This document shows positions 7,388 to 57,671 of a stretch of DNA of 64,000 bases, piece after piece. Source of the DNA: Crassostrea angulata. Its lineage: Eukaryota. Below the pieces are notes generated by a model, which saw only the letters and a list, made by a program, of their open reading frames with translations, ran no database searches and was not told where the DNA came from. Position 1 is the first letter of the stretch; every line of letters begins with the position of its first letter. The DNA is taken from NCBI RefSeq assembly GCF_025612915.1, contig NC_069116.1, forward strand, positions 6,090,123 to 6,154,122, written 5' to 3'. The position numbers and the translations under genes were made by a program.

Positions 7388-7454
7388 TTAAAGAGAGATG
7401 ACTTAATCGGGTTTCACATAAAGATATCAGTGTATAGGAATATTCCACACATAG

Positions 7455-8292
7455 GTATCAGCTTCTCTTAAGCATCCTAACATAGATATCTGTTTACAGA
7501 ATGATTCCTGACATAGATATAAGTTTATAGGAAGATTCCTAACATAGATATAAGTTTACAGGAAGATTCCTAAAATAGATATGTTTAGGCTAACATAGAC
7601 ATCAGTTTATAGGAAGATTCCTAACATAGATATAAGTTTATAGGAAGATTCCTAAAATAGATTTAAGTTTATAGTTTAAATAGTTTATAGTAAGATTCCT
7701 AACATATGGTACATAAATACCAGTAAGTTTATAGGAAGATTCCTAACATAGATATAAGTTTATACTAGAAAGCTTCCTAATATAAATGACAGTTTATAGG
7801 AAGATTCCTAACATAGATATAAGTTTATACTAGGAAGATTCCTAACATAGATATAAGTTTATACTAGAAAGCTTCCTAATATAAATATCAGTTTATAGGA
7901 AGATTCCTAACATAGATATAAGTTTATACTAGGAAGATTCCTAACATAGATATAAGTTTATACTAGGAAGATTCCTAACATAGATATAAGTTTATACTAG
8001 GAAGATTCCTAACATAGATATAAGTTTATACTAGGAAGATTCCTAACATAGATATAAGTTTATACTAGGAAGATTCCTAACATAGATATAAGTTTATACT
8101 AGAAAGCTTCCTAATATAAATATCAGTTTATAGGAAGATTCCTAACATAGATATAAGTTTATACTAGGAAGATTCCTTACATAGATATAAGTTTATACTA
8201 GGAAGATTCCTAACATAGATATAAGTTTATACTAGGAAGATTCCTAACATAGATATAAGTTTATACTAGGAAGATTCCTAACATATATATCA
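7455..8292. repeat. 37 bp minisatellite, about 22 units
   Basis: Unit ctaggaagattcctaacatagatataagtttata(ct) with variants (ctagaaagcttcctaatataaatatcagtttata), period 37 nt. Confidence 0.9.
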
Positions 8293-12809: not shown

Positions 12810-13326
12810 GTAAGTATTTATTCTCCATTAAAATTTACTCAATGCATAAAGTTAACAGTTAGCTCTCTCCCTACTGGTTTCAGAACTAGCAGAGACGTAA
12901 ATATATATTATTAAATAATAATGTTTTCGTCCCTGACACTATACTCTGTCCCGAGTTTTTGCTTCCACCACTTTTTGCCTGATATTTCAATAATAGTAAA
13001 TACCTTAGTGCTCAAACTACGTTCATTCACTATAGTCTGTCCCAAGATATTTATGCAGCACATTTGGACGATTTTAAAAAAAAATACACATACCTGTGAA
13101 AGAAGTGCACTTGTAATAGTTGAAAGGGTTAATTTCCAAGATAATTTCATTGACACATTATCAACTGTCACTTAGAAAAAATCACAGGAACGAAAACAGA
13201 TTCCTTACTGAGATTTATAACGGGGAATGTTTACATCTTTACTCCATTCGGAATACATCGCGCAATTTTTCAACGTTATCATCCGGGCTTGCTGCAATAC
13301 AAAATCTCTGTAGACATCACATTTTT

Positions 13327-13852
13327 GGGAGTTGATTTTAATCAACTCTCCTATGCACTTACTCGGACAAAGCGAAAGTGAAACAGTGTTTGGACCTAAG
13401 CACAAATCAATACCGCTGACAGCACTTAGTTCTGGAAAATATTCGATAAATTTGATGCTCTGTATTCTGAAGCATTGTTTTTCAAGAAAACTTATTTATC
13501 AATACCATGAAAATAATAAGATTTTAAATTGTACAAACAGTTTAGTTATTTTGTAAAGTCGTATGTATTCCTACGCTAGAGTTCAATGTAGTCTCGTTCA
13601 ACCAGACGCTAGGCTGTCTCTGTCGATATCCGACAAAATATATCTTGCTTGTCGGAGATAAACGGAGACAGCCGAGTGTTTGGTTGAACAAGACAAGAGT
13701 TCAATCTTGCCTGGATCCATACAATTTCTCAGAAATATTTCGATTACTGATACTACTTGCCATGCAAAATCACATATTTATCATTTTGAATAAATGATAA
13801 TCGATAAAATCAACTCCCGTCAGTACTTCAGTACTTTGATTTAGCATTGTAT
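13327..13852 (+). mobile_element. Foldback/MITE-like non-autonomous element, copy 1 (in RFC5 intron 2)
   Basis: Starts with the palindrome GGAGTTGATTTTAATCAACTCTCC. The 3' end is ...TAAAATCAACTCCCGTCAGTACTTCAGTACTTTGATT, giving terminal inverted repeats (TIR) GGAGTTGATTTTA/TAAAATCAACTCC. A long internal inverted repeat (cgttcaaccagacgctaggctgtctc ... gagacagccgagtgtttggttgaacaa) is also present. Three copies share the same ends. Confidence 0.75.
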
Positions 13853-15883
13853 TGAAACCTGATACGCTAACAGGGGCGTTTCGACTGAGAAATCTTGGAA
13901 ATTTTTAATACTTTTGAATGAACATTGTTTGAACCCTGAGGTATTACAAATACCATTAAAAAAATTGTTTTTGTTCCTGTGAAATTTTATGAGTGAAAAG
14001 GGATAATTGTTCAATGAAGATATCTTGGATATATTCCCTTTCATCGATTTCAATTGTATTTTTTTCACAGGTATGTGTATTTTTATTAAAAATCATCAAA
14101 AATTGATGGAAGCAATAACTTGGGACAGACTGTAGGATTTATTAGGTACAGCACAATCTCTTGATTATATAATTGGATGGGAGAAATAGTGAACTGCGTT
14201 TTCCGAATCTCTAGTCAGGTGCTCTACCAGCTGAGCTTTCTGGTGCCATTATTCGAAATGGTTTGACCGGCACAATTATATTATATCCCAAATGGGCTAT
14301 TACTGTATTTTCCCGACGACTCGTCGATGCGGACGACTCGTCGAATTGCCCATTTTTAGCCAAAATTTTAACAAAATCCTACGATGCATAGATCTCAGAC
14401 CATACGTCGATCTTATCACTTCAAAATGGCCTATAAAACTGCAGTAACATTATCAGTGTATGATGCCACGATGTCACCGATATTGCTACCAATTGCAATT
14501 ATTATTAATGATTAACATTTAAACAATTACGCTTTATACTTATGCATCAAATTTTCAAATACCGGCAACTTCTACAAAGTCGCTTGCATTTTAAACAATT
14601 CCCGATATCGCGTGTTATGCAAAACTAAACTTACTTTGTCAGAAATATTTTATTCCCAAGCATTAAAATAAGTATCCACTCTGACTATCGCCAGTGTATT
14701 CGCCATTACGTAACCAGCCACCTGTTGACTCGGCGCGTGGTCAATGTTTGTTTAACAATTTCCGGTGTCATAGGCATGCACCTGTCTCGTGTCGGACTTC
14801 AAAGGGGGATCTCAAGTGCAGAAAGCTTAGCAATTACTATGATTTGATGAAACTTGTTTACTTTGTATCAAGTAATGCAGTTACACGCTATTGTTTTACA
14901 TAGACACTGTTAGAAATAGATCGATCATTTGTACGACTTGATAATGACGATATACGACATACATACGTTTCCTAAGAAAATTGTCTAACAATAATCAAAG
15001 AATTGGACAATAATTAATCAATGAACTATAATCACTCTTATAACGGTACTCTTTTTATACACAGGGAGTGAAATTGCCGTAAAGATCTCACCCTTAGGGC
15101 ATGATTATTAACACAACCGGTGTCAGCCTATTGTATAAACAATAGTATTGATAATTGCCGATTACGTATTTTAAGATTGAATTTGACCATTAAATATTTC
15201 TGATTTATACTTTCCACTAACAACTCTTTACAAATAAAATAATTAAATTTAAAAAACATCCCCCAGACCTACTGCAATATTTTCTTCCATTCAAACTTGG
15301 TTTCAATTTTACTGCGCAATGTTATCTTCCTATAAGTGATACATAGAACCATGTGACGATGTCACGGATGTGTTTATAAAAACGGAACGGTAAAACTTTT
15401 AATTGATTAAAGACAATGTAACATTTTTTAATAACTGTTGTTATTATTATGTATTTAAGTGTTGACAGATGAGTGAAAATGATAATTATTAAAGATGAAC
15501 AGTGAATTCAACAACGTAATTTTTAATCACACAGCCAACTCAAGATGATTAAAACCAAGATTTTTAATGCTATTTTTAATAAAAATTTTCTGACATCGAG
15601 CCTACGACAAGTCGATCAAGACGATAAGTCGGGTGCTCTGCTTCAGAGAAAAAAAATACCGACTAATCGTCGGAAAAATACGGTAGATTCCATTTGGGCA
15701 ATTGGTCCCAACCTGATGAAAATCAAGTTTTGATCCATACATTTCTGAATGGCCCAGGCTGTATGTAATGCAAACCATTTGATGCATTAGTTATTGTGAA
15801 CAATGAGTACATAGAACATTAGTTTTGCAATTTAAAGCATTAAAAAAGTAGTACTTTTGTTTTCTATATCTCTCTTTTTTTAG

Positions 15884-16020
15884 TTGATAAATTTGTTAAA
15901 GAAGACAGACTGCCCCATCTTTTGTTTTATGGACCTCCAGGAACAGGAAAAACCAGCACTATTCTTGCAGTAGCAAAGCAGATCTACTCTCCCAAGGAAT
16001 TTAACTCTATGGTGTTGGAG
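15884..16020 (+). CDS. RFC5: RFC5-like exon 3 (Walker A / P-loop)
   Basis: tttttag acceptor. Encodes [52 protein letters not shown] donor. Confidence 0.85.
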
Positions 16021-16936
16021 GTGACTTGTTGCTTCATTTTACCTGGTCATACATAAAAGTTTTATATGCAAGCCTTTTTTTTGAATGTTTATCATGTTTT
16101 TAGTCCCAAAACCAACATTAACGAATAATCAGGCAACATAGTTGTAATTTTATGTCCCATACGAGAAATAGAGTCTGCACAAGCTTTTACACAATATGTA
16201 TTATCAGTATTACTTGTTATAATGTCACAGAAAATCAACCAGAGGAATGACAATATTAACCATGTTAACAGAGAAATACTTAAATAATGTATGTTTGTTA
16301 TAAGAAATAATGTTTTGATATTTTATCATTTTGTTCATAGACTTTGAATTTACATGTATATGCAAAGTGTGCTTCATAAGATGTATTTGACTAAATTCAT
16401 GAAGCAAACAATTTTCTGAATTTGGCATTTTTGTATGACAAAAAACGGGTTAAAACTCAAACAACAGAATACATAGTTATCTAGGGTTGATAATAAAATA
16501 AAACTACAAATGCAACTGTTTGTATATTGATAAAACATTGCAAGAAAACGAACAGATTTCATACGACTTTCTTGTTTCTCTATCAGCAATGTTAACCTCA
16601 TGACGTCACAGTTCATTTTGCACCAAATTTGGCTTCATTAAAAAACTGTTCAAGTGTGAAATCGGGTTTCCCGAAACATCTTGAAAAGTAATTGCGCAAT
16701 CGCAGTAAAAATTTTAGGATGCTGGTTTTTATTTCACATAGATTTCCATTATATCAAAATTGACTGACATTGCAGGTACCCTTTAAATTTTATCAGTGTG
16801 TATCAGCATTTATTACTGATAATTTTTCTGGGTAATGCCTGCAGTAAAAATTTTTATCCTATCTGGAAGGAATTATAACATCATGATAAAAGAAAACAAT
16901 GTCCTTATTAATATTGAACTCTACTTTTATTTACAG

Positions 16937-17016
16937 TTGAATGCATCAGATGATCGAGGAATAGGTATAGTGCGGGGACAGATTCTCAGCTTTGCAAGTA
17001 CAAGAACTATATTTAA
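16937..17016 (+). CDS. RFC5: RFC5-like exon 4
   Basis: ttacag acceptor. Encodes LNASDDRGIGIVRGQILSFASTRTIFK, against human LNASDDRGIDIIRGPILSFASTRTIFK. GTATGC donor, phase 2. Confidence 0.85.
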
Positions 17017-17275
17017 GTATGCATCTGAATTTTCATTTCATTTTATTTTTCATCAATAATTTGAAAAACTGACACCTCTAAAAAATTTAATTTGCTATAC
17101 ATGTTATTGAATAAAATTAAATGTTGTAAAGTAATACATGTATATTTAATATCCTCTTACTCTTTTTAATAATCATTTTACAAAATCCTAAATTCTAGAA
17201 ATATCTAGGGATCTCTAATAGCAGAAAATTTATTTTTCAGCTTCAATGTTCATTACTGTTTTGTTACTTACTTAG

Positions 17276-17349
17276 ATCTGGTTATAAGATTGTGATACTA
17301 GACGAGGCTGATGCTATGACAAGAGATGCACAAAATGCTTTACGTAGAG
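17276..17349 (+). CDS. RFC5: RFC5-like exon 5 (DEAD-box-like Walker B)
   Basis: Encodes (K)SGYKIVILDEADAMTRDAQNALRR. GTGAGC donor, phase 1. Confidence 0.85.
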
Positions 17350-17546
17350 GTGAGCGTCCTCTGTAACAAATAAATACAACATCTGATTCATACTGTTCAA
17401 CCGTTATGTATCTGACATAATTATTGTAAAGAATGAGATTCAAAATTTCATCACAGGAATCATAAAATTTGATGGAAAAGTGATAAATTGAATGATATTG
17501 CTTAAAAATGTAGTGGTCTATTGTATGTAGTTTTTGAATTTTTTAG

Positions 17547-17706
17547 TCATTGAGAAGTTTACAGAGAACACACGTTTTTGCATCATCTGCAATTACCTTT
17601 CAAAGATCATCCCCGCTCTCCAGTCTCGGTGTACTCGCTTCAGGTTCGGACCTCTGGGTACTGACCAAATGGTGCCACGCCTTCAGCATGTCATACAACA
17701 AGAACA
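17547..17706 (+). CDS. RFC5: RFC5-like exon 6 (sensor region, SRC motif)
   Basis: ttttag acceptor. Encodes VIEKFTENTRFCIICNYLSKIIPALQSRCTRFRFGPLGTDQMVPRLQHVIQQEQ. GTAAAT donor, phase 2. Confidence 0.85.
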
Positions 17707-17918
17707 GTAAATATTTACATTTTATATGATTTAAGGCTAATGATTTTTGACATGGCAGCTACTGAAGTACCTTCTGTGAATCCTCAGTGCTAAGAAAAAT
17801 CATTTTGTACATGCATTATATACTGACAAAAAGCATTAGTTATTTAGCGCTTCCTGAATGATTTCTGCCAAAAAAAACTTGAATTTCAGATAATTGAGCA
17901 TTTTGTTATTTTTTTCAG

Positions 17919-18000
17919 ATGTAATGTCACAGAGGATGGCATGAAAGCCTTAGTTACTCTAGCCAATGGTGACATGAGGAAAGCTCTAAATATTCTCCAG
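17919..18000 (+). CDS. RFC5: RFC5-like exon 7
   Basis: tttttcag acceptor. Encodes CNVTEDGMKALVTLANGDMRKALNILQ. GTAACA donor, phase 0. Confidence 0.85.
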
Positions 18001-19127
18001 GTAACATTCCTAGGAAAATAGAGTGAAAGATTAATTTACATTAAAGTATAAACAGCATACTGTTCACACTTGCATATGATGTGAAGCATATTTCGTATGT
18101 ACAGAAATTTAATACAGTAAAACTCATTTAGTACGAACATGGATATAGCGAAATCTCGGATATATCTAAGTTTTTTTAGTCCTCAGTAAAATTATTAACA
18201 AATCTTTGCAAAATTTTACAGTATAACAAATTTGGATATAAAGAATTTACAGATATAGCGAACTGATTTTGAGTTCCGTAGAGGTGAATAATGATGAAAT
18301 TTAACACTTTTATTACAAATTTCTTTACAGTTTAAAATGTTTGCACTACCATTTCACATAATAGTTCAAATGAATTTATTTTCACATAAATTTTTCAATT
18401 TACAATCCGATTATTAAAGGTATCAAAGAATGAATTTTAATTCTAAGCCTCAATTAGCAAAAAATGTAGTCTGGTAAAAGAAAACATGTATAAAGTGAAT
18501 TCGCCATAGTTAATATAAGGAATTCGTTATACGGATATAATGAATTACGGATATAACGAAGTTAATCTATTGGCCCCTAGGACTTCGCTTTAACCGAGTT
18601 TTACTGTACAGCAAAATGAAATCTTTATGCACTCTTCATTTTGTAATTTATATGTTTGATGTACTCCGACCCATGGGTAGGTAGTAGCTCTTTTTTAAAT
18701 TTTCTTGCACATCGATAAACTATTTTTTCTTGTACTGAGAATGCTAAACAAATTCAAAATTCATTGACACAGAAACATAGTTTAAATGTGTTTTTAATAT
18801 GACATGGGCAATCAATTTTTTTAAAAATCAAATTTAAAATGGAGAATTTCAACGGGTTGGTTGAAGTACATCAAACAAATCATTTTTTTTAAATTTATTA
18901 TAGAAAACATAATTTTTCAGAGAGAGCATGTTATTGATTTTGATTATAAATCTCTCTTAGTAAATGATAAAATGTAAGTGGGAAAGATTGGCACTGGCTT
19001 ACAAAACACAGATAAATTTATGAATATTGAGTATGTTCAATGACTGGCAAATATTAACATGGTTTTCTAACTAAAATCTGCACTGGATGTGCATAACTTT
19101 TAATATAAATCAAATCACCGTTTGCAG

Positions 19128-19257
19128 AGCACACATATGGCTCATGATGTGGTGAATGAAGACAATGTTTATACATGTGTGGGCCATCCACTTAGAAGAG
19201 ACATAGAAAACATCATCAACTGGGTCCTGAATGAGAATTTCACCTCTGCGTACAACA
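19128..19257 (+). CDS. RFC5: RFC5-like exon 8
   Basis: tttgcag acceptor. Encodes STHMAHDVVNEDNVYTCVGHPLRRDIENIINWVLNENFTSAYN. GTATCC donor, phase 1. Confidence 0.8.
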
Positions 19258-19400
19258 GTATCCTTTAATGCTTTTGTTTTTTATTTGTTTAGCCCAATCT
19301 AGAATTTCACATAAACTATCCAAGCCAGGGTTTTTGATGTTATATGAGAGCAACTTATAATATCTCTTTTGCATTTTATTGATTCTTAAAGGCTGCTAAG

Positions 19401-19478
19401 ATATTTTAGAAATGAAGACAGAAAAAGGTCTGGCTCTTCAAGATATCCTGACAGAAGTTCATACATATGTACATAGAC
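19401..19478 (+). CDS. RFC5: RFC5-like exon 9
   Basis: Encodes (N)ILEMKTEKGLALQDILTEVHTYVHR, against human NITELKTLKGLALHDILTEIHLFVHR. GTGAGT donor. The acceptor is a weak AG after ctaag, so the exact 5' boundary is uncertain by a few nucleotides. Confidence 0.7.
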
Positions 19479-19704
19479 GTGAGTTGAGAATGCTATTATT
19501 TTAGATTTGGCTTGATATATAACTTTACATTTAACTGGGTTATATATATATATTTTATCTGCTGACAAATCATGAAAATTAATAATAGAAAATTTTGATA
19601 TGATGTACATGTAGCTCTGTATTTGAAGTGTCCTAAACCATGATAAATGAAACTATATTTCGGTCATTAGTCAAGCTTAACTTTTGTTATTTTTTCAATT
19701 TCAG

Positions 19705-19759
19705 TTGACTTACCAATTAATGTAAAAATTCATCTTCTGGACAAAATGGCAGAAGTAGA
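19705..19759 (+). CDS. RFC5: RFC5-like exon 10
   Basis: tttcag acceptor. Encodes LDLPINVKIHLLDKMAEVE. GTAAGT donor, phase 2. Confidence 0.8.
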
Positions 19760-21229
19760 GTAAGTAACTTACAATGTCTTTTACAATATATCTGTATACT
19801 AAATAAATGTGTATGCTTACTTAACATCATTAAATTGTTTTTTTAATGTACAATATAAAAATACTCATTATTCATGTAAATTAAAGTAAGTATAAAGCTA
19901 GTTTCCTAAGAAAATCTATATTATAAGTTGTATTAAAATGTATTGTTTGCTGTATAATTTTACATGTGTTTAAGATCTATATATTAATTGCACCTTTTAA
20001 GTTTAAACCTCCTAATAGTTGTAGAGAAAAAATTGTCATACCCAGACTCTTATTATAAACTCTTAAGCAAGTATTTGAACAGTAATATATGTAGCATTTG
20101 TCAGTAAAGAAAGATAAGTTTTGAAAATTCAAGGTCTCCAATCCCCAGATATTTTAAGTCAATTTGTAATAAAGTTTTTTTTTTAGCAAAATCCCTTTAT
20201 ATCTGGATATAAAGTAAAATATATTTATGCATGGTCATATGTATGATGAGCATAAAGGCTACTTTCAAAATTGATCCTTTGGTTTCAGAATGCTTAGATC
20301 TTGTAGCAAATGTGAATAACTAATTACAAATGCATACAAAGTTGACAATTCTAATCAATATAATCCTCTTTCAATCTTTCCTAAATGTGAATTAACACAC
20401 TGTCTTACTAACGCACCAACATATATCGAGATACCCATATCCCCTCAAAAATAAAATGCATGAGGGGATAACAATATATACAAATCCCTCCTGGACAATC
20501 AAAAACACACATCACCCTAACACAAACCTCCCACTTATTTTTCACAAATTTTACAGTCTTCTGGTTACGTTTTAGAGAACATCAGCCTATCCATGTATTT
20601 TTCTATTCATCATTAAATGTTTTTACATGAAAAAAAATATACATAAGGGCCTAAAATGCCCCCCTAAATTAAACATCATATATGTATTTTACTGTACTAA
20701 TATATGTTTTTGTTATGAATATGTCGTCTATCCTTTCCAGCCATTTTTCAATTTTTTTCAATGGCTTATATTAACGCAGTTTTTCTTTCAGAAAACATTG
20801 AGCACAGGCTTAAACAAAGAAAATATTTTCATCAAACTTTAATATTACAAGACTAATGAAAGACTAAGATTTTGCTTGTTCAAAACTTTATCCTATATTT
20901 CCCATCTGAAAAAGATAACGAAAATGCACATATTGGACTGATTTTTTTGAATTCTAAATATAGCTTCACTTATGACATCTGATACTGCCAGTTTATAAAA
21001 TTTATTGAGATGTATATATGAAAAATTACATCATATAACAATTCTCCTACAAAACAATAAAACAATTCATATGCCTAAAAAGTATTGAAAAAGTTGAAGT
21101 ATGGGGGCCAAATTTGACTCTTTTCATATATAGTTCTCAAATCTATTTTTGATGTTAATGACACATTCATGATTTATAGAAAAATATATGAAGAGAAACA
21201 AGAGGACCATGAGCCACAACAGTTTGTAA

Positions 21230-23950
21230 CAATCCATTTCGTAGCATATGCTATTTTTATTTTAAATTTTTAACCTTTTCTGGGGCCCAAGTATTGGTCT
21301 GGGGTTTATGGTTGGCTTTAACAATTTAAATTATACACTATTTGAGGATCCTTGCATATTAATCTCACAAACTTTAGCATTGTAGTTCTTGAGAAGAAAG
21401 TTTTTAAACATTTTTATTTCTATGTTAAACTTTGAACCCCTCTTGAGGCCCCAGTAGTAGTTGGGTGGTCACAGCCTTATTAATTTAGAATCTACATTAT
21501 TTAAGGATGCTTTCAACTTCACAAATTGAAGCATTGTAGTTCTTCAGATGAAGATTTTTAAACATATACCTCTATATTTTTATGTTAAACTTTTAAGCCC
21601 ATCTGGGGCCCCAGTATTAGATGGAGGCTTTTACAATTTAGAATCTACGCTATTTTAGGATGCTTACAAGTAATTTGACAAATTGAAGCATTGTAGTTCT
21701 CAAGAATCTTATTGTCCAAGGTTGCATTCATAGCAATCTCACAAATTATAGCATTTTAATTCTCGAGAAGAAGATTATGAAAATTTTTAACTTTGAACCC
21801 ATTTTAGGGCCCCAATATTAGTTCGGGGGGTCATGCTTTTACCAATTTAGAATCTACAATAGCCATGGATGTTTAGATAGTAATCCACAAACTGATGCAC
21901 TGATGTTCTTGAGATGTTCCCTATACATGTATATTTCTTATTAACTTTGAACCCTTCCTGGGGCCGAAATATTAGTCTAAAGGTAACGTCTTTAAAAATT
22001 TAGAATCTTCACAATATGAGGAATCTTTCATAGTAATCTCACAAACTGTAGCATTGTAGTTCTAAAGAAGATTTTTAAAACACTTTTCCTCTATACTTCT
22101 ATGCTAAACTTTGAACCCCTTCTGGGGCCCCAGTGTTGGTCTGGGGGTCACAGCTTTTACTATTTAGTCTAGGGGTAACCTCTACCAAAATTTAGAATCA
22201 TCACAAGTTGAGGATGCTTGTATAGTAATCTCACAAACTTTAACATTATAGATCTCGCAAAGAAGATGTTTAAATATTTATTTCTGTGTTAAACTTTGAA
22301 CACCCTTGGTGCCCCAGTATTACCGGTAGTCCGGAGGTCACGAATTTACTAATTTAGAATCTACAATAGCCAAGGATGTAGTAATATCCCAACTGTTGCC
22401 TTGTAGTTCTTGAGAAGAAGATTTTTAAACATTTTCTTAAATACCGGTATGTTAAACTTTGAAACCCGTCTGGGGCCCAGTTATTGTCCGAGGTCACGAT
22501 TTTTTGGAGTTGATTTTAATCAACTCTCCTATGCAGTTACCCGGACAAACCGAAAGTGAAACAGTGTTTGGACCTCAGCACAAATCATCGCTGCTGACAA
22601 GACTTAGTTCTTGAAAATAATTGATAAATTCGATGTAATGTATGCTAAAGCATTGTTTTTCAAGGAAACTTATTTGAAAATAGTCAGATTTTAAAAGATA
22701 CGAACAATTTAGATATTTTTTGTAGTCGTATGTATTCCTACGCCAGAGTTCAATATAGTCTCGTTCAACTCGACGCTCGGTTGTCTCCGTAAATCTCCGA
22801 CAAACAGAGAGTCTCTCTTGCTTGTTGCAGTTTACGGTGTCAGCCGAGCGTTTGGTTGAACGAGACTAGAGTTCAATATTGCTTGGATCCATACAATTTT
22901 CGAAAATATTTTTATTACTGATACATAGTTTGATTGAATTAAATTTATCTTTAAATATTATTTAACATGATTCATATGGGGGTTTCTCGACATTCTTGTC
23001 GAAAAAGTCCAAAAATTCATATTATAAAAATGTGCGTAATTCAAATACAAATTAGAAACTGCATGTACTTGTCATGCAAAATAACATATCATTGACTTTA
23101 AAATAAAATCAACTCCCGTCAGTTCTTCAGTACTTTGATTACAATTAAGAATCTTCAGTTTATATACAAGCTTCTGTATAAATATTGGCATTTCTGGTGA
23201 AGTGTTTCCGCATCTTGAGGAGAAGTATTTTTAAACTTTTCCCCTATGTGATTCAATGTTAAAATTTGAACCCCACCTGGGGCCCCAGTTTTGGCCCAGG
23301 GGTCACAATTTTTACAATAATGTTTACTATATATAAGCTTTTGTGTAATCATTTGCATTTCTAGTGCAGTGGCTCTTGAGAAAAAGATTTTAAATTTTTT
23401 TCTTTCATATTTCTATGTTAAACTTTGACCCCCGCCTGGGGCCCTAGCTTTAACCCAGAGGTCACAATTTTACAATTTAGAATTTTTAATATTTTTTCAG
23501 GCTTTTTTGTAAATATTTGGGTGGAGGTCACGGTTTTTACAATTTAGAATCGTCACTATATACAAGCTTTTGTGTAAATTTTGGCATTTTTGGTAAAGTT
23601 GTTCTTGAGAAGAAGATTTTCCCACAGATTTCTATGTTAAAATTTGAACCCCTCCTTAGGCCTCAGTTATGGCTCGAGGGTCACGATTATTACAATTAAG
23701 AATCTTCACTATATAGTAGTATTCAAGCTTGTATGTAAATATGGGCATTTATGGTGCCGTGGTTCTTGAAAAGAAGATTTTAAGACTTTTTTCTAGGTAT
23801 TTCTATGTCAATATTTGACCCCGCCTGGGGCCCCCGATTTAACCTAGGGTCACGAATCTTCACTGCATATACACATGTATATATTCAAGCTTTTGTGTAA
23901 ATATTGGCATTTTTTGTGCAGTTGTTCTTGAGAAGAAGCAATTGCCTCCT
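21230..23950. repeat. Satellite-like tandem array of about 150-200 bp units (about 14 units) inside the last RFC5 intron, interrupted by a nested element
   Basis: Recurring core aaactttgaaccccNcctggggccccagtattgg...atttagaatctacaat...attgtagttcttgagaagaagatttttaaa repeats about every 155-200 bp. The array is split by the insertion at 22506-23150. Confidence 0.8.
22506..23150 (+). mobile_element. Foldback/MITE-like element, copy 2, nested in the satellite array
   Basis: Same termini as copy 1. The flanking sequence on both sides continues the tandem-repeat unit (ggtcacgatttttt | element | acaattaagaatc), which shows a clean insertion without an obvious target-site duplication (TSD). Confidence 0.75.
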
Positions 23951-24339
23951 TTAAAAAGGGATTAGCACTTTGTTTTAACATTTAGACTCCCCTTCCCCTA
24001 AGGATACTTTGTACCAAGTTTGGTTAAATTTGGCCCAGTGATTTTAGAAAAGTTAAAAATGTGAAAAGTTTTTGGACGGACAGACGGGCGACGGACAAAA
24101 GGTGATCATAAAAACTCACTTGAATCTTCGGTAAAAGTGAGCTAAAGAGGGCGTTATTTTCTACACTGGGGCTCAGATTCCTTGTCAAGCCTTGGCAAAG
24201 TCTTCTCCAAGATCATGAATCCTTTTCCCTTGATGGAATTTTACTCTCAGATGAATTGTAAATGGAAGTTTATGATCACTCCTGGAGAATAGAACAAAGT
24301 AAAATACTGTAATCTGATTATTTTTTGTTTTACTTTCAG

Positions 24340-24436
24340 ACATAGGCTGGCCTCTGGCACCAATGAAAAGATCCAGCTTTCATCTCTGATAGCTGCATTC
24401 CAAGTAGCTCGAGATCTCATTGTTCAAGAAACATAA
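24340..24436 (+). CDS. RFC5: RFC5-like terminal exon with stop codon
   Basis: tactttcag acceptor. Encodes HRLASGTNEKIQLSSLIAAFQVARDLIVQET*, against human YRLSVGTNEKIQLSSLIAAFQVTRDLIVAEA*. TAA at 24434-24436. Confidence 0.85.
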
Positions 24437-24478
24437 TGATTTCTTATGAAACAAATCAAACTGTCTACCGCTATTATG

Positions 24479-24484
24479 AATAAA
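24479..24484 (+). terminator. Candidate polyadenylation signal (AATAAA) for the RFC5-like gene
   Basis: AATAAA lies 43 nt downstream of the stop codon. Confidence 0.4.
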
Positions 24485-25189
24485 TTTTCTTGAATAAGTG
24501 TTCCATCTTCTTTTTGGAGTTTTTTATGCTTTGTGCAAATCAAAAGGAACTGAAAAGTAGGCTTGTGGAATTGGACAAATCTGCCTTTAAGATTGCATCT
24601 ATACAAACATCATTTGTTTCTAAAGATTTTTTCATGAATAACTTGATATCTTCAATACTTACTTTTATTGTTTTCACAAATACGAAGAAGGAAATACTCG
24701 AGTTAGTGCAGGACACTGTCATATTTTTCTTTTCTTGCTACTTTTCTCAACAATTTCTAAATAAGCTGCAGACTTTTTTAGCAGTTCAAAGTATTTAGAT
24801 GTACAGGCCCCACTTTCGTTGAAATATCTAACACCGCTATTGATAATTGGTGGCTGTACTATAAATAGATTTTATACACTTATTCCAAGCGAGAAGAAAA
24901 GACCTTCAAATATACACGGCACTGCATTATAAACAAATAGAAAATGCACCAAAAAAAAAGAGAAAAGCGCAGAATCTAATGCAATAGTAATGCTACAAGT
25001 TGGTCATGATTCCAAGGTGTGCACTCAGATTAACAAATGCGAAGGGTTGATTTGCACGTGTTCTGGTGTCGGTGATGGAAAAACAAGAATGTCGTCTCTA
25101 TTTAAATGAGCCACGCTTAACTTTATAAGCGTCTTTTCACAATTTAAAAATCATAAGAAAACTACGCAGGTTTAAGATTGTAGGCATTA

Positions 25190-25470
25190 GAACCATTTTA
25201 CTAAAACCTTTGATTTTCAGTAGGGCGTAATTATCTATTCCTCGCGTCAAAACAAGTTAAAAATGACGCGGTTTCAAGCGAAAAATGCACCGATTGCGTA
25301 GACTTAGCGTAAAAGCCAGACAAATCTTGTTAATTTCAAAGAGCCGTGGCTGAGTGGCTTGCAATGAAATAGACAGGCCTACGTCACGTTGTTGTTTGAC
25401 AAAAACTACCCAAAATCCAAGCTCCTCTTAAAATGGTTCTAGTTGGACTCGAACTCATAACTTATTGCAA
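25190..25470. repeat. Dispersed repeat family D, copy 1
   Basis: cagtagggcgta...gcgtcaaaacaagttaaaaatgac..gtttcaagc..aaagccagacaaatcttgttaatttcaaagagcc...gagtggc..gcaatgaaatagacaggcctacgtcac is similar to 42690-42940. Confidence 0.7.
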
Positions 25471-28400
25471 TCACAAAATAGAGGTGTCTCGATTTAAGGA
25501 AATGATATTGTAATGTTGCGAATCAAATGTGTCCAAAATAAATAAACAGAATAAGCAAGTGATAAGACCATTTGTGAATCACTTGGTGCAGAGAAGAGAC
25601 AATTGGCCACTTAAGGCGTTTATGACTGGCATCATTATTGACACTCCCGAAAAATTCACCTCCGGTGTCAATTTCAACCGCTTATTTTATCATACTGAAT
25701 GTCTTAATTTTAAAGAAAACTTTACTGCTGATGCTAACTCTAAGGCGAACCGTACGCGCATGTAACAATTCGTCGTGTTATCCGTTGCCTTGTGTGTTGA
25801 TAACGCTGAGGGTAATAGAATGGATTATAAACTGTGTCTTAACTAATCAGACTTCACTATTTAATTTCAAAAATAATTATAAAAAAATACCCTAGTAAAG
25901 TTAAAATCTGATAGAAAAAAATCCAGAATATTACATTTTGCACATCCAACCTTCACGAAAACTGAACTGGGCACTGTTATCGGGTTTCTTTGTACGTATG
26001 TCGTGAAACTAGCCATCCAACTACGATGAATAGTACTTCCTAAGTGTCGAGGGTGTAAAAAAAATAAAAGTGACCTTATGTCTTGTCATCAAGCATAAAC
26101 TTTTCTTCCTTTTAGGAAGCGGTGCACACGAACATCCGAAACATAATCCAAAACAGCATTCTTTACAGATCCTTATCTAATGTGGCAAAATCTGGAGGGT
26201 CGATCTTGCATGTTTTAAATCGACCAAGCATATGTTTGCAAAAGGTTTATTGTCTGACGTCCATCTCATTGTCGAATAGGTTGTTGGATGATTCACAAAT
26301 TGCTTCAGCTATTTTTTATCGTTTCCCCGAGAAATGACGAATAACGTTGTGTGATTCATTGCATAAAGTATAACTTCTAAACTTGGGGACAAATATTATT
26401 TAAGATTTTTGGCTTGACATTCTTAACTTATAATATACATAAACTTATAATATACATGTATATCTGAATTTGTTCATAACAGTTTATAATTAGTCCAATT
26501 CTCAATTTACGATCTCGCAACTTTAATGTGAAGATGGTTGACCTCCGGTAAGACACTTATTGTTTAACAATTGACCACTGCAGTGAGAGCGCTTCCAAGT
26601 GTTACTTAACAATTGATGGTCTGCAGCCATAAATAACCTGGGGCTGATCTAAATATGTTTGCGTCGTGTGCACTAAAGCGACGCAAGATTTCCGGTTGCA
26701 CGTGGTGATTGAATGAACACAGAGTGACCGAATAAACAAACGGGTGGGAAGAAGAAACACAATAACGAGAAAAAATTTACACTTTAGGGGTAATCAGAAA
26801 TTGAGTTTTCGCAACATTTGGATATCATCTCGCCAATTTTAAAAAAAAATCGCCATTGCCAAGATTGGCGAAGCCCAGCTCGAGCACTGGTGTAGACCCT
26901 CTGGAACCGATTGATGGCGTTCATTTTGTCTGTGTAAGCTAACCCTACAAAGTCGATGACAAATCCTGACATCTTGGTTTTCACCCCAAACAGATATCGT
27001 GTTTCATGATTACTGTGTATTTGTCACAGATCTCACAAATTGAAAAAAAAAACCCACTAAAATGACAGCTATTATAACCAATCGAGTTTGCGTCACATTT
27101 TTAAAGAAATGTCAAAGCAGCTTGATCTGATTTTTTGGCAATGCAAGTCTGAAAATATTTCTCATCCAAAGAAATTTCTGGTAAAAAAAACCCACAAAAC
27201 AAATCATACTCCGCAATCTGTCTTTTGAGAAATATACAGCATGTACTTAAAAAAAAAGTAGAATCAACTTTACTGCGTCGAGTGTCGTACAGTTACATGC
27301 ATTGGTTAGAAAACGTCTTATCGCAAACATCATATATAAAATCAGTTGCATCGAAGCGTTAAAAAATATTTCATTATATTCCAGGGAAAACTACTTTTTT
27401 AAACGGACCCATGGAACTGAATTTGTATGAAACTCTTCTACATAGGTTTTGTTCAACTTAAAACATGTTTCACACCTCAAACAATGGATTTTTACTGATA
27501 TCAAATGATTTGTTACAGACCAGGTCCAAGCTCCATGGCTTGTTGACGTGTCGTTACATGACTTTTGACCTTCGAAGTTGGTCGTCAGCACTTCGGGTTG
27601 TATTGAATTTCCGTACAAACCTTTGAATGGTTTGGTGGTCTCTTTAAAAATCTAGCAATCTGTATTAAATATTATGAATTAAGATTAGCACTTTTATTGT
27701 TTTGGACAGCATTTTTATAGATAAATATAAGAAACAAACGTATCGTGAACCACACCCTGCTTGGACCATGCCAACTGCTTTTCCACATTCCCGGCAAGAC
27801 ATGCATGCGCCGCATTTTACTCAATTTGTTTCTTGTTTTTTGTTATAAGCAACTAGAGGCAGAGAACTGTTTTTAAATCACACCCAAAAATATTTAGATC
27901 CACGCTTTTCAACAAATACGTTCAGGGTCGACTCACTCAATTACAATATTTTGACATGGACAGTTGAGCATTTTAAAAAACAGACAATAGTCGCAACGTC
28001 TTTTAAACTGATGTTATGGTTTCTTTAATTATAAAATATTAAAAGTGGGGCGTCAGAATTTTTGGCTCGTATATAGAAAGCAAACAGATACCAGATGAGC
28101 CTGGAAATGATGCTTCTAAATGAATAAGATGTGCAACGTATTCCTGTGTATAGATTAATGGGGAAAACTATGACCATAATCTGAATAAAAAAACCCAGAA
28201 ATTGTTCTTAAAACGACACTGAATAGTTTTATATAAACATATAAAGAGAATGTCAATGATATTCACTTCAAAGACCAAATAACCCGGGTCTTTGAATCTT
28301 TACCAAAGACAAATGTACAATATTTAAAAAAACAAACTTGGATCGCCTCTGAATTCCTTATAATTATGAAGTGCATTAGCTGGTTCCCATCCCTTTCTCA

Positions 28401-30564
28401 AACATCATTGAAAAATATGAACGATTTTACTATTCAATGTCCCAAAAGACACGTCAACTTGAAAATTACCAAAATCTTCTTTAAACTTGAATACAACTCT
28501 CTTTTGTCAACTGCTTGATTCAGGCAAACATGCCAGAGGGAATAATTGTACAATTCCCATTACCAAAGTAAGCTGCGAAGAAAAGTGTCCCTCTTTTGAC
28601 GAAAAAAGGTGTAACCTACCGAGGATCTAGAGCTTTAGGGATGCTGAAAGGTTCGTCAACAGGTGAACGATTGGGGTCGCTCAAAGAATAGGGTGAAAGT
28701 TTTTGCGAGTTTCTGACCAATTTTGTAAGTAACAATCACGACGTCTAAAGAAAGCAACTTAACTGCAAAACCAATTCATCCGAACACTTCGTTTTCCAGG
28801 AATCTAGACTGAATTAAGAAATACTACTAGAGTAACTGTCTCATATCAATCAATAATGAAATATTTGCACACCAGTAAGCAACATTCAGGTGTTCACCAG
28901 TAAGGGTACATCTAACCAAACGTCACAGACGTCTCCAAATGATGCAGTGTAAATATGGCCGCTCTGGATAACTTTTTCTGATTCTTCTATGAAGGATCAT
29001 GGTCAAAACGACTATGATGTTTGCCGACATTTCTTACAACAGAAGGACTCAGCCTGGTGCTTCCGACAAAAATTAATTTTGACACATCAATGATGAAACT
29101 TGGAGGCAAGAGTTCTTCTGCTATTACCAAAGGCATGAAGTTAACGCCAAAATTACATATATCCCGGTATTTCAATATGAAATTGTCAGGAATTGGTATG
29201 AGGATTAGCAAAAAATGGTTCCTTAAATTCCAGATAATCTAGTCTAGATTCATTTTCTTAATATTAAGAATATTAATCACATGAGCGAAAAAGGAAGAGA
29301 TTCTACTCCCCTGCAAAACTCAAACTCATTATATCCACACATAAATAATAGACCTTGGGACATTCAACCCGGGCAAACAAAATTATCTCTTTGGCCCCAC
29401 CCTAAAAAAAGCTGGAGCCGTGCATGTTCGTGTGTTAACAAACAGAATGCGTCACACAAGTTCTATATTTTCCCAAATTAAAATAAGGCTTCAAGACGAA
29501 ATATGTTGGTAATACCGTTCAGACCTGTAAGTAGTAATTGAGTCTGTGCAATGAAACACAAATTAAAACCGACGATATGGAAAAAAAATACGAGAAAACT
29601 TACATGTTATAAAATTTGTGTCATTCTGATTAATGTTTGAAACACAGCATTAATGAAGCATTCGTTAGTGTTCAGTTCACTACTCTTAAAAATGCATACG
29701 CCATATATTATTTTCTCCTTTTCCCACAAGGATCTGGTCAAAGCTTTGTTACGCATAGTTGATCTTTGACCTGTGATATTGAAATGTCAAAGCATACAAA
29801 ATAAAATATGTGTCACAAAACTAGAAGACTGTAAACCATTCAAAACAAATGATCGCAAATAATATTTTCCTGTAACATTCATGAACAATCATATATCTCA
29901 CAAAATTCTCGGAAACCTCGGGTACTGTTTCAAAATAATTTAAATAAAAAAAGGTGCTGTTTTTTATCCACGGCTCTCTTTTGACATTCAGAACCTTTAA
30001 GAAAAGTATGCATGTGTGAAGTGATTATCCCTTTTACATAAAGAAAATAGACATCCAAGTCGATTAAGTAAGCATAAACAACGTCCACCTTGTCAATGCC
30101 AGAAAACTTTTGACAGATCCATATTGCTGAATTTTAAGTGAATCGATTTGCGTTTCCATCATTTCTAATAAGGTTGTATTTGTAGAGCGAAGGAGCAGTG
30201 TTCCATGACCTCCAACGAAGAACGTAAAGAAAGGGATTTCCATGATCTGCTCCTGTGGAAGCTTACAGTGTTTATACCAAAGATGGTAATTTGGAAATAC
30301 TATTAACCGAAGCTTCAACACAGTTTTATGTTCCCCAAAATGCAAAGGAATATCATTTCTTTACGGATAAAAAGAAACTTTTTTCTGTTTTACTTCCATA
30401 AATGGCACAAACAGTGTATACCGATACCAAATATTTTTTAGGATGGGTGGTCATGTTTGGCACATTTGAGAGGATTTAATATAGAAACAGGTTTTTCTCT
30501 TCTTGTAACAATCTTAGCTAAAGTTGCAATGATGAAATATCTAAAATTATACTTTTCAACTTTC

Positions 30565-31216
30565 GGAGTTGATTTTAATCAACTCTCCTATGCAGTTACT
30601 CTGGCAAACCGAAAGTGAAACAGTGTTTGGACCTAAGCACAAATCATCACCGCTGACAAGACTTAGTTCTCGGAAATTATCGACAAATTTGCTGTAATGA
30701 ATTCTGAAGCATTGTTTTTCAAGGAAACTTGTTTATTGATACCTTGAAAATAGTCAGATTTTAAATGGTAGGAAACAATTTAGACATTTTTTGTAGTGGT
30801 ACATGTATGTATTCTTACGCTAGAGTTTACTATAGTATCGTTCAACCAGACAATCAATGGTTTCCGTAAATCTTCGTCAGGCAGAGAATTTCAGAGAGTT
30901 TGTCGGAGATTAACGGAGACAGCAGAGCGTTTGGTTGAACGAAGCTAGAGTTCAATATTGCTTGGATCCATACAATTTTTCAGAAATATTTCGATTACTG
31001 ATACGTACGTTGATGGAATTAATAGTATCTTTAAATATTACACGACATGATTCATATGGGGTTTTCTACAAATTCCGAGAATTCATATTATAAAAAACGT
31101 GCGTAAATCAAATACATAACGGAAACCACTTGCCAAGCAAAATAACATTATCGTTGATTCTAAAATAAATAATAATCGATAAAATCAACTCCTGTCAGTA
31201 CTTCAGTACTTTGATT
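30565..31216 (+). mobile_element. Foldback/MITE-like element, copy 3
   Basis: Same terminal palindrome and the same 3' ...CTCCTGTCAGTACTTCAGTACTTTGATT. The internal region is closest to copy 2. Confidence 0.75.
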
Positions 31217-32289: not shown

Positions 32290-33400
32290 ACCCACCTTTA
32301 TGACTACCTTTTCATTTTAAGGGTACGTTATCCTGCTCCAATGGATTCGGCGCCACAAGTTGTAGTTTTTTCAAGGGATATTTTTGAATAATCCTTAATT
32401 AGTTTGCGTTCTGTTCTCACAAAAGGTAAATAATGTTTGGATTTCTTCAGTAGATTGTCGTTAGGGACTGTTGTCATTTCCACCTTACAATTGTATTCCA
32501 AACATAATGATTAATCTATGGAGTAAAAGTCTTCGATACCATTCACAATTAGATGCTTTTGTTGCCTATATTTTCAGGAAAAATAAATGGGTTGGTGAAA
32601 CAGGGTCACTTCTAAGTATTTATGGACAAACAATGCGCCAAACCTGTGGTCGATGCATTTTTGGATAATTTTTGGATGCTGAAGGAACCTCAAATTTACC
32701 AGATATTGAAGTCTTTGAGGTACGCTCATTTCTAAGTAGCTCTGCTTCCTACTTTTCAAAAAATTAAGAGCTGATATACATGATGTACCAATTGTGCCCC
32801 ATTGTTGGAAGACCTATTTTTGTATTCTTATGAAGTAGAATTTATTCAAAAACTTGTGCGAGAAAAAAATAAATCACTCGCTGTGGCCTTCATCTCAACA
32901 TTCAGGTATATCGACGACACATTATCAATTAACAATTGTTATTTCCATACTTACGTCGACTCGATATATCCCAGTGAAATTGAAATAAAAGATACCACAG
33001 AGTCTGCGTCATCTGTTTCATATTTGGATATTTTACTGGACATGGGCATTGATGGTAACCTAACAACAAAACTTTATGATAAACGCGATGACTTCAATTT
33101 TTCCATAGTCAACTTTCCTTACTTATGTAGCAATATACCTTCATCACCTGCATATGGTGTTTTTGTCTCTCAGTTGATTCAATACGCAGGGGCATGCTCT
33201 TCGTACGAACAATTTTTAAGACGAAGCAAGCTACTGACAAACAAGTTGATAAAACAGGACTATCAACAGTCTCGCTTGAAGTCATCATTTCGTTAGTTCT
33301 ATGGTCGATACAAGGACCTTGTCAGCAAATACAATATTCCACTGGTTCGCATACCGAATGACTTTTTTCATACTAATTGTTAGACCATCATTAATCACCT
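32290..33400 (+). mobile_element. Degenerate retroelement reverse-transcriptase remnant (Penelope-like RT signature), frameshifted
   Basis: The 164 aa ORF at 32802-33296 contains FRYIDDTLSI (RT motif C, YxDD), followed by YLDILLDMGIDGNLTTKLYDKRDDFNFSIVNFPYL...SQLIQYAGACS. From memory this matches the FLDxxI...VYRKxTxTDxYLxFxSxHP...RA..xCS block found downstream of YxDD in Penelope-like RTs. Flanking frames carry frameshifted continuations. Confidence 0.4.
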
Positions 33401-47410: not shown

Positions 47411-48470
47411 ATGGTGTCATTTTTCAGATTGATGATGGAAGCCTCTCAAGATGAAGTGGATGGACAAAATTTTGTCCAAATTAATGAAACAAATGCTAAC
47501 TCAAATTCAGTAGAGAATTCTACTCATAATTATATGGATGATGACAACAATGTTCCAAGCATGCATCCTCCCTCACCAAAAGAAAATAGCTTTGGAAAAT
47601 TGGAGAGAATAAATTCAAGAAACATATTTGAAGACTTGCTAGTAGAAAGTTCAACCAGTGGTGAAGAGGTTCAACATCAGACTTGTCCAATCAATGAAGA
47701 TTCCAAAAAAGTGAATGATAAATCAATTTCACAACAAAGTGTGTTAAGTCTGAAAAAAGTCTGTACTTTAGGGGCCAGACAGTGTTCAAAAGAAAGCAAC
47801 CAGAAGTTTAAGAATACCAAAGACAACACCAATTTATCTGATGAAGACCTACCTTCTGATGTAGTCAACAAACATGATGATTTGATTCATGTTACAAATG
47901 AGACAGACAACCCAGTACTAGTAACAAATGAGGAAGGAACCACAGAAGCAATAGACAAAGAAGTTGAAAAGGAGGATAGAACAAATGAAGAGATTGGCAG
48001 CAAAGAAAAGGAAAAGGAAGGAGTAATTAAAGTAACTGATAGCCAAGAAAAAATGGAGGATGGGACTACAATGGAAACAGACAACCAAGAAAGAAAAGAG
48101 GGAGAAACTTTAGACAGTACAAATAACTTACAGGAGAGGGAGGAAGGAACATCAGAAAATTCAAATGATCTAGAAGAAGAGAAGGAAGGTAGTAAAGAAG
48201 AAACAGAGATCCAAGTTAGGATGTTGGATGAAGCTTCTTCAGAGACAATGAACCAAGTTGGGAAGGAAAATGGATCTACCAAAGAGAGAGACAAGCAAGA
48301 AGTGAAGGAAGAAGAAACTGTAGAGACTAGCAAGATACTTTCTGCTTCTGAGGAAACATCAAATGAGACACCTAAAAAGTCTTCCTCTAAACAAGTCAAT
48401 AATGACAATACTGAAGTAGATTTAGAAAAACAGGATAAATTACCAGAAGATACTGACAATGAGGATAAAA
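47411..48470 (+). CDS. Giant C2H2 zinc-finger protein gene, first recovered coding exon (acidic, disordered N-terminal region)
   Basis: ORF in frame from ATG 47411, with a good Kozak context aagATGG. In-frame ATGs at 47432 and 47435 are alternatives. A tttttcag at 47420-47427 could instead be an acceptor from an unseen upstream exon. E/K/T/S-rich sequence. GTAAGT donor at 48471, phase 1. Confidence 0.55.
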
Positions 48471-49089
48471 GTAAGTAATTAAATCCATATGAAATTTATC
48501 ATATAAAAAATATATTTGGAAATATCAGTTTTATGTCAAATAAAAGTTGGCAATCTCAACCACTGCTTCTATATGATTAAGCCTTTCTATATTAAATCCT
48601 TGCATCTCTCAATGTTATTTTATTCATTTGCATTTTAATAAAAATATTTGGTTGTAAGTGCCATTTATAAACATTCATGTTTTCATAAATGAATTACAAT
48701 CAACTATAAATAAACCCTGACAGTTTAAGTAAGTGTGCAAGGTTAAAAATATTTGTTTATGGTAGATTTTCAACAGTATATGCAGACAAGTGTTATGTTT
48801 GACCTGAATGGTACCGTATAATTTCCTTATCTATTTTAATAGAAAATTAATCTGACACTGGAATTGATCTCTTTTGATGTTGATATATGTTGTTTGTGAA
48901 AAACTTAAATATTTCTTGTTAATGTTGATGGTTTTATACATCTATGTGGTCCCCCACACATGTAGCCTTCCATCAAGGACTCTCTTATCATGAAGATGTC
49001 ACCAATATTTTTTGAATAGTAAATCTTCAGGAAATTGAATGTTATGTTTATCTTTAAGGGACGTTATAGTAACCTTATCTACTTAATAG

Positions 49090-49160
49090 GAAACCAATCT
49101 GACACCATTGAAAATGAAACAACACATTCAGTTGGGGACAAAATAAAATTACTTGAGCAG
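49090..49160 (+). CDS. Zinc-finger gene micro-exon (71 nt)
   Basis: cttaatag acceptor and GTATGT donor. Encodes (R)NQSDTIENETTHSVGDKIKLLEQ. It restores phase exactly between the exon ending at 48470 (phase 1) and the exon starting at 50129 (phase 0). Confidence 0.55.
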
Positions 49161-57252: not shown

Positions 57253-57342
57253 GTAAGTTTACAATATATATTGTATATTTAGAGGAAATCAATTTCATAT
57301 TTCCCGAAAACATGTAGATTTTCAAATATTTTTACTTGACAG

Positions 57343-57578
57343 ATCAAAAATTGCAAACCATATAGTGAAGCTTCATCCAGGCAAAGCTGTTCATGTTGTT
57401 GATTTAAGGCAACGTATGGGAAATTTGAAGTTTCGAAATTATGAAATTAGGACACATTCATCTAAATCCAAGCAGAAACCTAAGAAAAATATGCCTAACA
57501 TGGCAAGGGAAACACGTTGCTTAAATGAAAGTCGGGCAACAGTTTTTCGCAAAAGAAAAAGAGATCAAGAAGGAACAG
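57343..57578 (+). CDS. Zinc-finger gene exon 4
   Basis: ttgacag acceptor. Completes the finger ...CPYCDFQGYPR|SKIANHIVKLHPGKAV, then a basic KRKRDQEG segment. GTATGT donor, phase 1. Confidence 0.7.
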
Positions 57579-57671
57579 GTATGTATAAAATGTAAATTCA
57601 TAAAAACGAGATCTTGTGATATTTACCATCAAAAGTTCTATTTGATTATCATTGATACTCTTTTTTTCCAG

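Follow-up and report, generated by a model that had tools for sequence, protein, structure and literature searches.

Helitron-type elements, the non-autonomous HINEs included, constitute the most abundant transposon superfamily in Crassostrea gigas, and many of them carry subterminal inverted repeats (PMC7992393). The Cg_HINE families of this oyster (Vojvoda Zeljko et al. 2020, PMC7492417; Repbase Helitron-N*_CGi) possess a 5' subterminal inverted repeat (subTIR) of 11–12 bp and, 1–12 bp away from it, a complementary short inverted repeat (IR) of 7–12 bp; their 3' subTIR is followed by a palindrome able to form a stem-loop, and they occupy oligo-T or TT sites without target-site duplication (TSD), have no coding capacity and are frequently nested in other repeats (PMC7492417). 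HINEs of mites, mosquitoes and Drosophila, among them HINE-Mo of the mite Metaseiulus occidentalis and DINE-1/INE-1 of Drosophila (Thomas et al. 2014, PMC4067079), have subTIRs of 12–15 bp, a 3' stem-loop with a palindrome of 5–10 bp, TT or T-rich targets, variable terminal T's and no modification of the target site, and DINE-1 carries in addition a short IR beside its 5' subTIR (PMC4067079). In the classification used by HELIANO, canonical HLE2 elements, including Helitron2 with its asymmetric terminal inverted repeats, are described as having terminal inverted repeats of 12–16 nt, the right one followed by a stem-loop, and as inserting between T and T (PMC11417382). We analyzed a stretch of 64,000 nucleotides of the Crassostrea angulata genome (contig NC_069116.1, positions 6,090,123–6,154,122, hereafter the window) that contains three copies of a repeat with ends of this kind. 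Very probably, these three repeats belong to a single family of Helentron-associated interspersed elements (HINEs), which are non-autonomous rolling-circle transposons of the HLE2 type, in the genome of a Crassostrea/Magallana oyster.

An earlier note on this DNA had described three copies, two palindromes and the lack of a TSD, features that were re-measured here on the whole window, which is AT-rich (~33% G+C). Three copies on the + strand were indeed recovered (Table 1), with pairwise identities of 84–86% (gaps excluded) and a pairwise divergence of 14–17%; the copies are old and presumably no longer mobile. The sequence shared between them begins at 13327/8 in copy 1, at 22506 in copy 2 and at 30565 in copy 3. 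The end previously given for the third copy (31216) is correct, whereas those given for the two others (13852 and 23150) overshoot by 10–11 nt, the true ends being 13841 and 23140. The 5' 21-mer GGAGTTGATTTTAATCAACTC occurs exactly three times in the window, as compared with 0.01 occurrences expected by chance, and the 3' 36-mer occurs three times versus 0 expected, copy 2 having one mismatch (AGTTCT for AGTACT). No further copies or fragments were found elsewhere in the window. In each copy the loss of similarity is sharp and occurs at the same two boundaries, and comparison of the 2-kb flanks between copies revealed no similarity; each copy was therefore inserted independently, and a segmental duplication does not account for them. 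The host sequence is also a different one for each of them, namely an inverted-repeat element for copy 1, a tandem array for copy 2 and unique DNA for copy 3. The termini are the best-kept parts of the element: the proportion of positions that do not vary among the three window copies is 90–95% in the first 80 nt and 94% in the last 32 nt, as against 51–57% in the middle of the element, at the hairpin centre.

Using short spurious open reading frames (ORFs) as handles, additional copies were found in ENA metagenome assemblies, all on unrelated contigs: L002 corresponds to the 5' half of the element, L003 is nearly full length and L001 is truncated at its 5' end. The UniProt entry A0A8W8JQ71_MAGGI (P0014), an "uncharacterized protein" of M. 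gigas, is a translated copy of the transposon as well; this entry and the ENA gene calls P0011–P0013 are annotation artefacts, that is, translations of a non-coding transposon. The six copies fall into two subfamilies. A block of ~125–140 nt is lacking in the short subfamily (copy 1, L001 and L003) and present in the long one (copies 2 and 3, and L002), and the two differ in their diagnostic substitutions; the block itself is visible only in copies 2 and 3, the contig of L002 ending before it. Identity amounts to 91–93% within the short subfamily, 86–91% within the long one and 83–86% between them, a pattern pointing to amplification in several rounds, with different copies as the source, and to a long neutral decay afterwards. 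L002 (positions 186–260) has inserted directly behind a (GACR)n microsatellite such as those of the left flank of Cg_HINE, another instance of a HINE in or next to a HINE. Exact-pattern scans yielded no match for the 5' hairpin in the metagenome and viral collections, for the 3' end in the prokaryotic genome collection, or for the conserved internal block in the metagenome and genome collections, as is expected of a eukaryotic repeat. A full-text search of the literature with the 12-mer end retrieved only unrelated primer and sequence matches.

The element starts after a run of T's with (G)GGAGTTGATTTTA. Of the five copies with a 5' boundary, three have G directly after the T run, one has T and one has C; this variation of the first base explains the wobble of the 5' boundary that had been noticed before, and which is real. 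The 5' end is formed by one arm, GGGAGTTGATTTTA, of an inverted repeat of 13 nt (14 nt in copy 1), the arms of which are 100% complementary in 3/3 copies. This 5' arm is terminal, nothing being conserved among the copies upstream of it, and the 3' arm TAAAATCAACTCCC is subterminal. The IR AATCAACTCTCC directly adjoins the 5' subTIR, and the two together form a hairpin with a 10-bp stem, a 4-nt loop and one bulged T, folding at −6.9 kcal/mol as single-stranded DNA (z −4.5). It is because this short repeat is complementary to the 5' arm that the 5' end had been taken for a perfect palindrome.

At the other end, the 3' arm TAAAATCAACTCC(C), also given as 3' AAAATCAACTCC, matches the reverse complement of the 5' start exactly, a point left unstated in the earlier note. 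Between it and the end of the element lie 23 nt, which in all three copies form a conserved tail, GTCAGTACTTCAGTACTTTGATT. The tail contains a stem-loop whose 5-bp stem starts 4 nt past the 3' arm; pairing of AATCAA with TTGATT lengthens this stem. The second palindrome reported for this region, AGTACT..AGTACT, is present in copies 1 and 3 and mutated in copy 2. All three 3' ends read ...TTTGATT, the element thus ending in TT in 3/3 copies.

The 5' flank terminates with a run of 2–6 T, and TT is found upstream of the element in 5/5 copies with a 5' boundary, for which the chance is estimated at ~2e-5 at 34% T. The insertion site of copy 2 can be compared with paralogous sequences, as its two flanks, placed end to end, can be aligned through the junction, in collinear order, with four adjacent monomers of ~170 bp. 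The sole difference at the junction is the presence of 6 T versus 4–5 T in the paralogous monomers, and nothing else is duplicated. A duplication longer than one or two T is excluded at this site, and to that extent the claim of a clean insertion of copy 2 without TSD holds. The flanks of copies 1 and 3 likewise contain no duplication apart from T's.

The body between the ends comprises ~450–600 nt and is non-coding: its coding capacity is not meaningful, the largest frames having 30–74 codons and being unconserved. Neither Rfam (at gathering thresholds) nor ARAGORN gave a match in the window, therefore a reading as an RNA gene or as a short interspersed element (SINE) is without support. No tandem repeats were reported inside the three copies by Tandem Repeats Finder. 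The body does contain, as previously noticed, a long internal inverted repeat. The resulting hairpin of 110–125 nt per copy, ~20% of the element length, has arms of 38–62 nt that are 73–84% complementary, and its folding energy is −23 to −37 kcal/mol (z −6.4 to −8.4). On both sides it is bordered by a direct repeat of 10–12 nt, AGAGTTCAAT[AT], the terminal inverted repeat of the hairpin unit itself being AGTCTCGTTCAAC...; in copy 2 the direct repeat is a perfect 12-mer, AGAGTTCAATAT, abutting perfect inverted ends of 13 nt. This arrangement suggests that the hairpin is the relic of a small transposable element of the miniature inverted-repeat type (MITE) that inserted into the progenitor of the family with a target duplication and was then carried along. 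A target duplication of 10–12 nt would fit a Mutator-like element. No independent copy of the hairpin unit was found in the window. A covariation test over 42 predicted pairs across four copies detected no compensatory double change, all changes being one-sided or pair-breaking. The complementarity of the arms is about that expected of two arms decaying neutrally at the divergence of the family, and the left arm is missing in L001. The idea of the hairpin as a maintained functional structure was dropped, given this lack of covariation.

Comparison with the described systems reveals that the end architecture is that of HLE2. Inverted repeats within the range of 11–16 nt, with a subterminal 3' arm, are found in 3/3 copies; the 3' arm is followed by a stem-loop, of weak stem, that folds in copies 1 and 3; an IR complementary to the nearby 5' subTIR is present as in the DINE-1/Cg_HINE subtype; and the insertions lie in T-rich sequence between T and T, the exact cut inside the T run being ambiguous. 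The nearest described elements are the Cg_HINE of C. gigas, which belong to the same host genus and have the same end architecture, the same oligo-T/TT sites, the same lack of coding capacity and the same nesting in other repeats. In contrast to them, the present family has neither a (GTCY)n-type microsatellite nor central satellite-like tandem repeats, and its body carries instead the long hairpin with its direct repeat on either side. The legible part of the supplementary material of PMC7492417 does not contain the end sequences of the family; the latter may be identical with a described or Repbase one, and may well be catalogued already as a Helitron-N*_CGi entry. DINE-1/INE-1 and HINE-Mo share with it the traits of the ends listed above and the T-rich target but no sequence relationship, and the 3' subTIR is located 23 nt from the end here versus 38–60 nt in the mite families; moreover, the DINE-1 core and microsatellite are lacking. 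The tandem-repeat-containing, MITE-like bivalve elements pearl, CvA and DTC84 are DINE-1-like and now regarded as HINEs, yet they have tandem-repeat cores, which the present family lacks. The assignment is made only at the level of HLE2, since Helentron proper and Helitron2 are told apart by the transposase of the autonomous partner, which is with an endonuclease domain in Helentron and without it in Helitron2. At this level, the family is an ordinary member of a well-known and very abundant class of oyster repeats.

Several observations weigh against this assignment. With its 5 bp, the 3' stem-loop is short; its stability exceeds that of shuffled sequence by a narrow margin only, and a point mutation has abolished it in copy 2. 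Only three 3' ends and one diverged paralogous empty site are available, and the cut positions and a duplication of TT are ambiguous, T's being both the target and the last bases of the element. The microsatellite and the central tandem repeats of the eleven described Cg_HINE families are absent from the copies; such repeats are, however, a frequent but optional feature, present in "some copies" of HINEs (PMC4067079), so that their absence does not exclude membership. Finally, an autonomous Helentron with the same termini was not found within the window. The search for such a partner, proposed in the earlier note, was run on the window only: apart from a zinc-finger gene there is no long ORF in it, no Rep or helicase domain was detected in the scanned ORFs, and a Pfam scan of ten ORFs returned zinc fingers only. 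One survey found no autonomous Helitron in C. gigas (PMC7992393), and Helentron proteins have been reported in molluscs.

Among the alternatives, an ordinary MITE, moved by a DDE transposase through cut-and-paste at the 13–14 nt inverted repeats with a 2-bp TT TSD, has the most in its favour and is nevertheless improbable. With N-GGAG...TTTGA taken as the extent of the element, each of the three full copies has TT on either side, and the empty site of copy 2 fits a TT duplication and T's owned by the element equally well. The same ambiguity of T runs, described for other HINEs too, led DINE-1 to be classed as a MITE before 2014 (PMC2374699; discussed in PMC4067079). Both repeats of a MITE should, however, be terminal and its TSD of fixed length, whereas only a possible TT is seen here and the 3' arm is not terminal, the conserved tail with its own stem-loop lying beyond it in all three copies while nothing is conserved upstream of the 5' arm. 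This asymmetry is the signature of HLE2 (PMC11417382) and is unexpected in substrates of DDE enzymes; furthermore, the empty sites of related oyster, mite and mosquito families are without duplication (PMC7492417, PMC4067079). A non-autonomous element of the canonical Helitron type (HLE1) would share the presumed rolling-circle mechanism, the 3' termination hairpin, which in HLE1 is located ~11 nt from the end, the lack of a clear target duplication and the lack of coding capacity, and Helitron-like sequences of canonical type have been reported in C. gigas (PMC7992393). Yet none of the defining features of HLE1, i.e. a 5' TC, a 3' CTRR, an A/T target and the absence of terminal inverted repeats (PMC4067079, PMC11417382), applies to the present family. 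Its ends are (T)n-GGGAGTTG... and ...CTTTGATT, its 3' terminus is TTTGATT, its flanks are T runs and it does have terminal inverted repeats, which leaves this origin very little probability.

In foldback elements, the terminal inverted repeats are long, as a rule sub-repeated, and account for most of the length. A rolling-circle and a foldback mechanism had both been proposed for this locus; the former stands, sharpened to HLE2/HINE by the architecture of the ends, and the latter falls with the 13–14 nt asymmetric terminal repeat. An element owing its mobility or instability to an extensive inverted-repeat structure could account for the strong internal hairpin and for the hairpins at both ends, but the long repeat is internal, limited to about a fifth of the element and flanked by a direct repeat like a nested insertion, none of the 42 pairs is compensatory and one family member lacks the left arm, so that we consider this origin highly unlikely. 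Still less credible is that the copies are not mobile and merely lie within one larger segmental or tandem duplication, which the earlier note had itself named as the outcome that would undo its claim. The three copies do have the same orientation within 18 kb, at spacings of 9.2 and 8.1 kb, but the unrelated 2-kb flanks rule out such a duplication, and the sharp boundaries, the differing host sequences and the further copies on unrelated contigs speak against it as well.

For the HLE2-type family, a mode of transposition can be proposed in which the enzyme, the steps of strand displacement, the circular intermediate and the role of each hairpin are borrowed from Helitron-like elements. A Rep/helicase(-endonuclease) transposase, supplied in trans by an autonomous Helentron elsewhere, would recognise the left end and nick one strand within its T run. 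The nicked strand would be unwound and displaced as far as the right end, termination being marked by the subterminal repeat and the stem-loop there; the two ends would then be joined into a circular intermediate, and the element would be pasted between two T's of a T-rich target without duplication. For a simulated 3'–5' junction the predicted folding energy is −11 to −14.6 kcal/mol (z −4.5 to −6.8); the arms of the inverted repeat pair as a stem of 13–14 bp, which bears the 3' stem-loop at the top and has the joining point at the bottom. Such a fold in the model gives a plausible rationale for the asymmetric design of the ends. It is conceivable, although rather doubtful, that the family represents an undescribed oyster HINE lineage without satellite-like repeats, amplified with a captured MITE-like hairpin, in which a 37-nt almost invariant block by the 5' hairpin, together with the cross-junction fold, constitutes the recognition and cleavage site of a Helentron transposase. 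To our knowledge, no biochemistry exists for this transposase.

Table 1. Coordinates of the three copies and of their structural features (positions in the window)
Feature	Position	Strand	Remarks
Copy 1, short subfamily	13327..13841	+	514–515 nt; 92.6% identical to metagenome copy L003, 84–86% to copies 2 and 3
Copy 1, 5' subTIR GGGAGTTGATTTTA	13327..13340	+	14 nt, 100% complementary to 13805–13818
Copy 1, IR AATCAACTCTCC, complementary to the 5' subTIR and forming the 5' hairpin with it	13340..13351	+	−6.9 kcal/mol, z −4.45
Most conserved internal block of the left end, GAAAGTGAAACAGTGTTTGGACCT	13374..13397	+	24 nt, identical in 6/6 copies covering that block
Copy 1, internal hairpin, arms ~13590–13636 and 13649–13695	13578..13707	+	−35.7 kcal/mol, z −7.3; 0/42 pairs compensatory
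Copy 1, direct repeat flanking the hairpin, AGAGTTCAAT	13578–13587 and 13696–13705	+	
Copy 1, 3' subTIR TAAAATCAACTCCC	13805..13818	+	pairs with 13327–13340
Copy 1, 3' tail GTCAGTACTTCAGTACTTTGATT	13819..13841	+	−5.1 kcal/mol, z −3.3
Copy 1, tail stem-loop AGTAC-TTCA-GTACT	13822–13835	+	
Copy 1, outer stem TTGATT/AATCAA	13836–13841 and 13808–13813	+	TTGATT pairs with AATCAA inside the 3' subTIR
Copy 2, long subfamily	22506..23140	+	635 nt, nested in a degenerate ~170-bp tandem array
Copy 2, 5' subTIR (22506–22518) and IR (22518–22529)	22506..22529	+	subTIR 13 nt, 100% complementary to 23104–23116
Copy 2, internal hairpin, arms 22756–22793 and 22831–22868	22745..22879	+	−36.9 kcal/mol, z −8.4
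Copy 2, 3' subTIR (23104–23116) and tail	23104..23140	+	stem-loop degenerate (AGTTCT); −1.6 kcal/mol, no better than shuffles
Copy 3, long subfamily	30565..31216	+	652 nt
Copy 3, 5' subTIR (30565–30577) and IR	30565..30588	+	subTIR 13 nt, 100% complementary to 31180–31192
Copy 3, internal hairpin, arms 30829–30879 and 30901–30951	30822..30958	+	73% complementary, −22.9 kcal/mol, z −6.4; most decayed of the three
Copy 3, 3' subTIR (31180–31192) and tail, stem-loop 31197–31210	31180..31216	+	−4.1 kcal/mol, z −2.2

The sequences surrounding the copies contain further repeats. Copy 1 is located in the middle of another repeat with inverted arms of ~190 nt (13030–13220 and 13944–14135) that are 76% identical; this host is a long-inverted-repeat element of ~600 nt, MITE- or foldback-like, and is more foldback-like than the family described here. 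It is adjoined on the − strand, at ~14190–14250, by a tRNA-like stretch, GCTCAGCTGGTAGAGCACCTGACT..., without an ARAGORN call, which may be the head of a SINE or a tRNA relic. The host of copy 2 is an array on the − strand (~21250–23950 plus 24075–24145) of ~15 degenerate monomers of ~170 bp, 70–79% identical to each other and missed by Tandem Repeats Finder; they are similar to oyster satellite-like repeats of the Cg170/HindIII type. Ahead of the array on this strand lie a hairpin, AGCTCACTT...AAGTGAGTT, and a (GTCY)n microsatellite, the layout published for the left flank of Cg_HINE. Judged from this layout, copy 2 looks like a HINE nested in an older HINE; the right-end repeat of that Cg_HINE-like host element was searched for and not found.

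Elsewhere in the window, a tandem array at 7422–8290 has a unit of 34 nt in 16.7 copies with 89% matches, and higher-order periods of 68 and 235 nt. An ORF of 164 codons at 32802–33296 (+ strand) contains an RYIDD motif reminiscent of reverse transcriptase, has no Pfam match at E<=0.01, and probably represents part of a decayed retroelement. At 47435–58390 (+ strand), a large zinc-finger gene encodes C2H2 fingers with weak ZNF462-like matches and is named REST by a UniProt source; it comprises an exon of ~8.2 kb, within which the longest uninterrupted ORF has 2350 codons, and is the cause of the strong A-over-T skew at 50–58 kb. Its protein is 97% identical to Magallana (Crassostrea) gigas K1R039 over the aligned part (24% of the query), 100% and 89% identical to two proteins from public sequencing-run assemblies, and 58–59% identical to homologues in Ostrea edulis and Saccostrea (59% for Ostrea edulis); by these values the window belongs to a Crassostrea/Magallana oyster.

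The present finding matters little beyond annotation: the elements are to be masked as Helitron/Helentron-type repeats, one copy having already been translated into the spurious UniProt entry mentioned above. The family is a clean and compact example of the HLE2 end architecture in a setting where such elements dominate the repeats, and it indicates that oyster HINEs exist also without satellite-like cores. If an autonomous partner with the same ends were found, the family could be used as a substrate for the study of the cis requirements of Helentrons.

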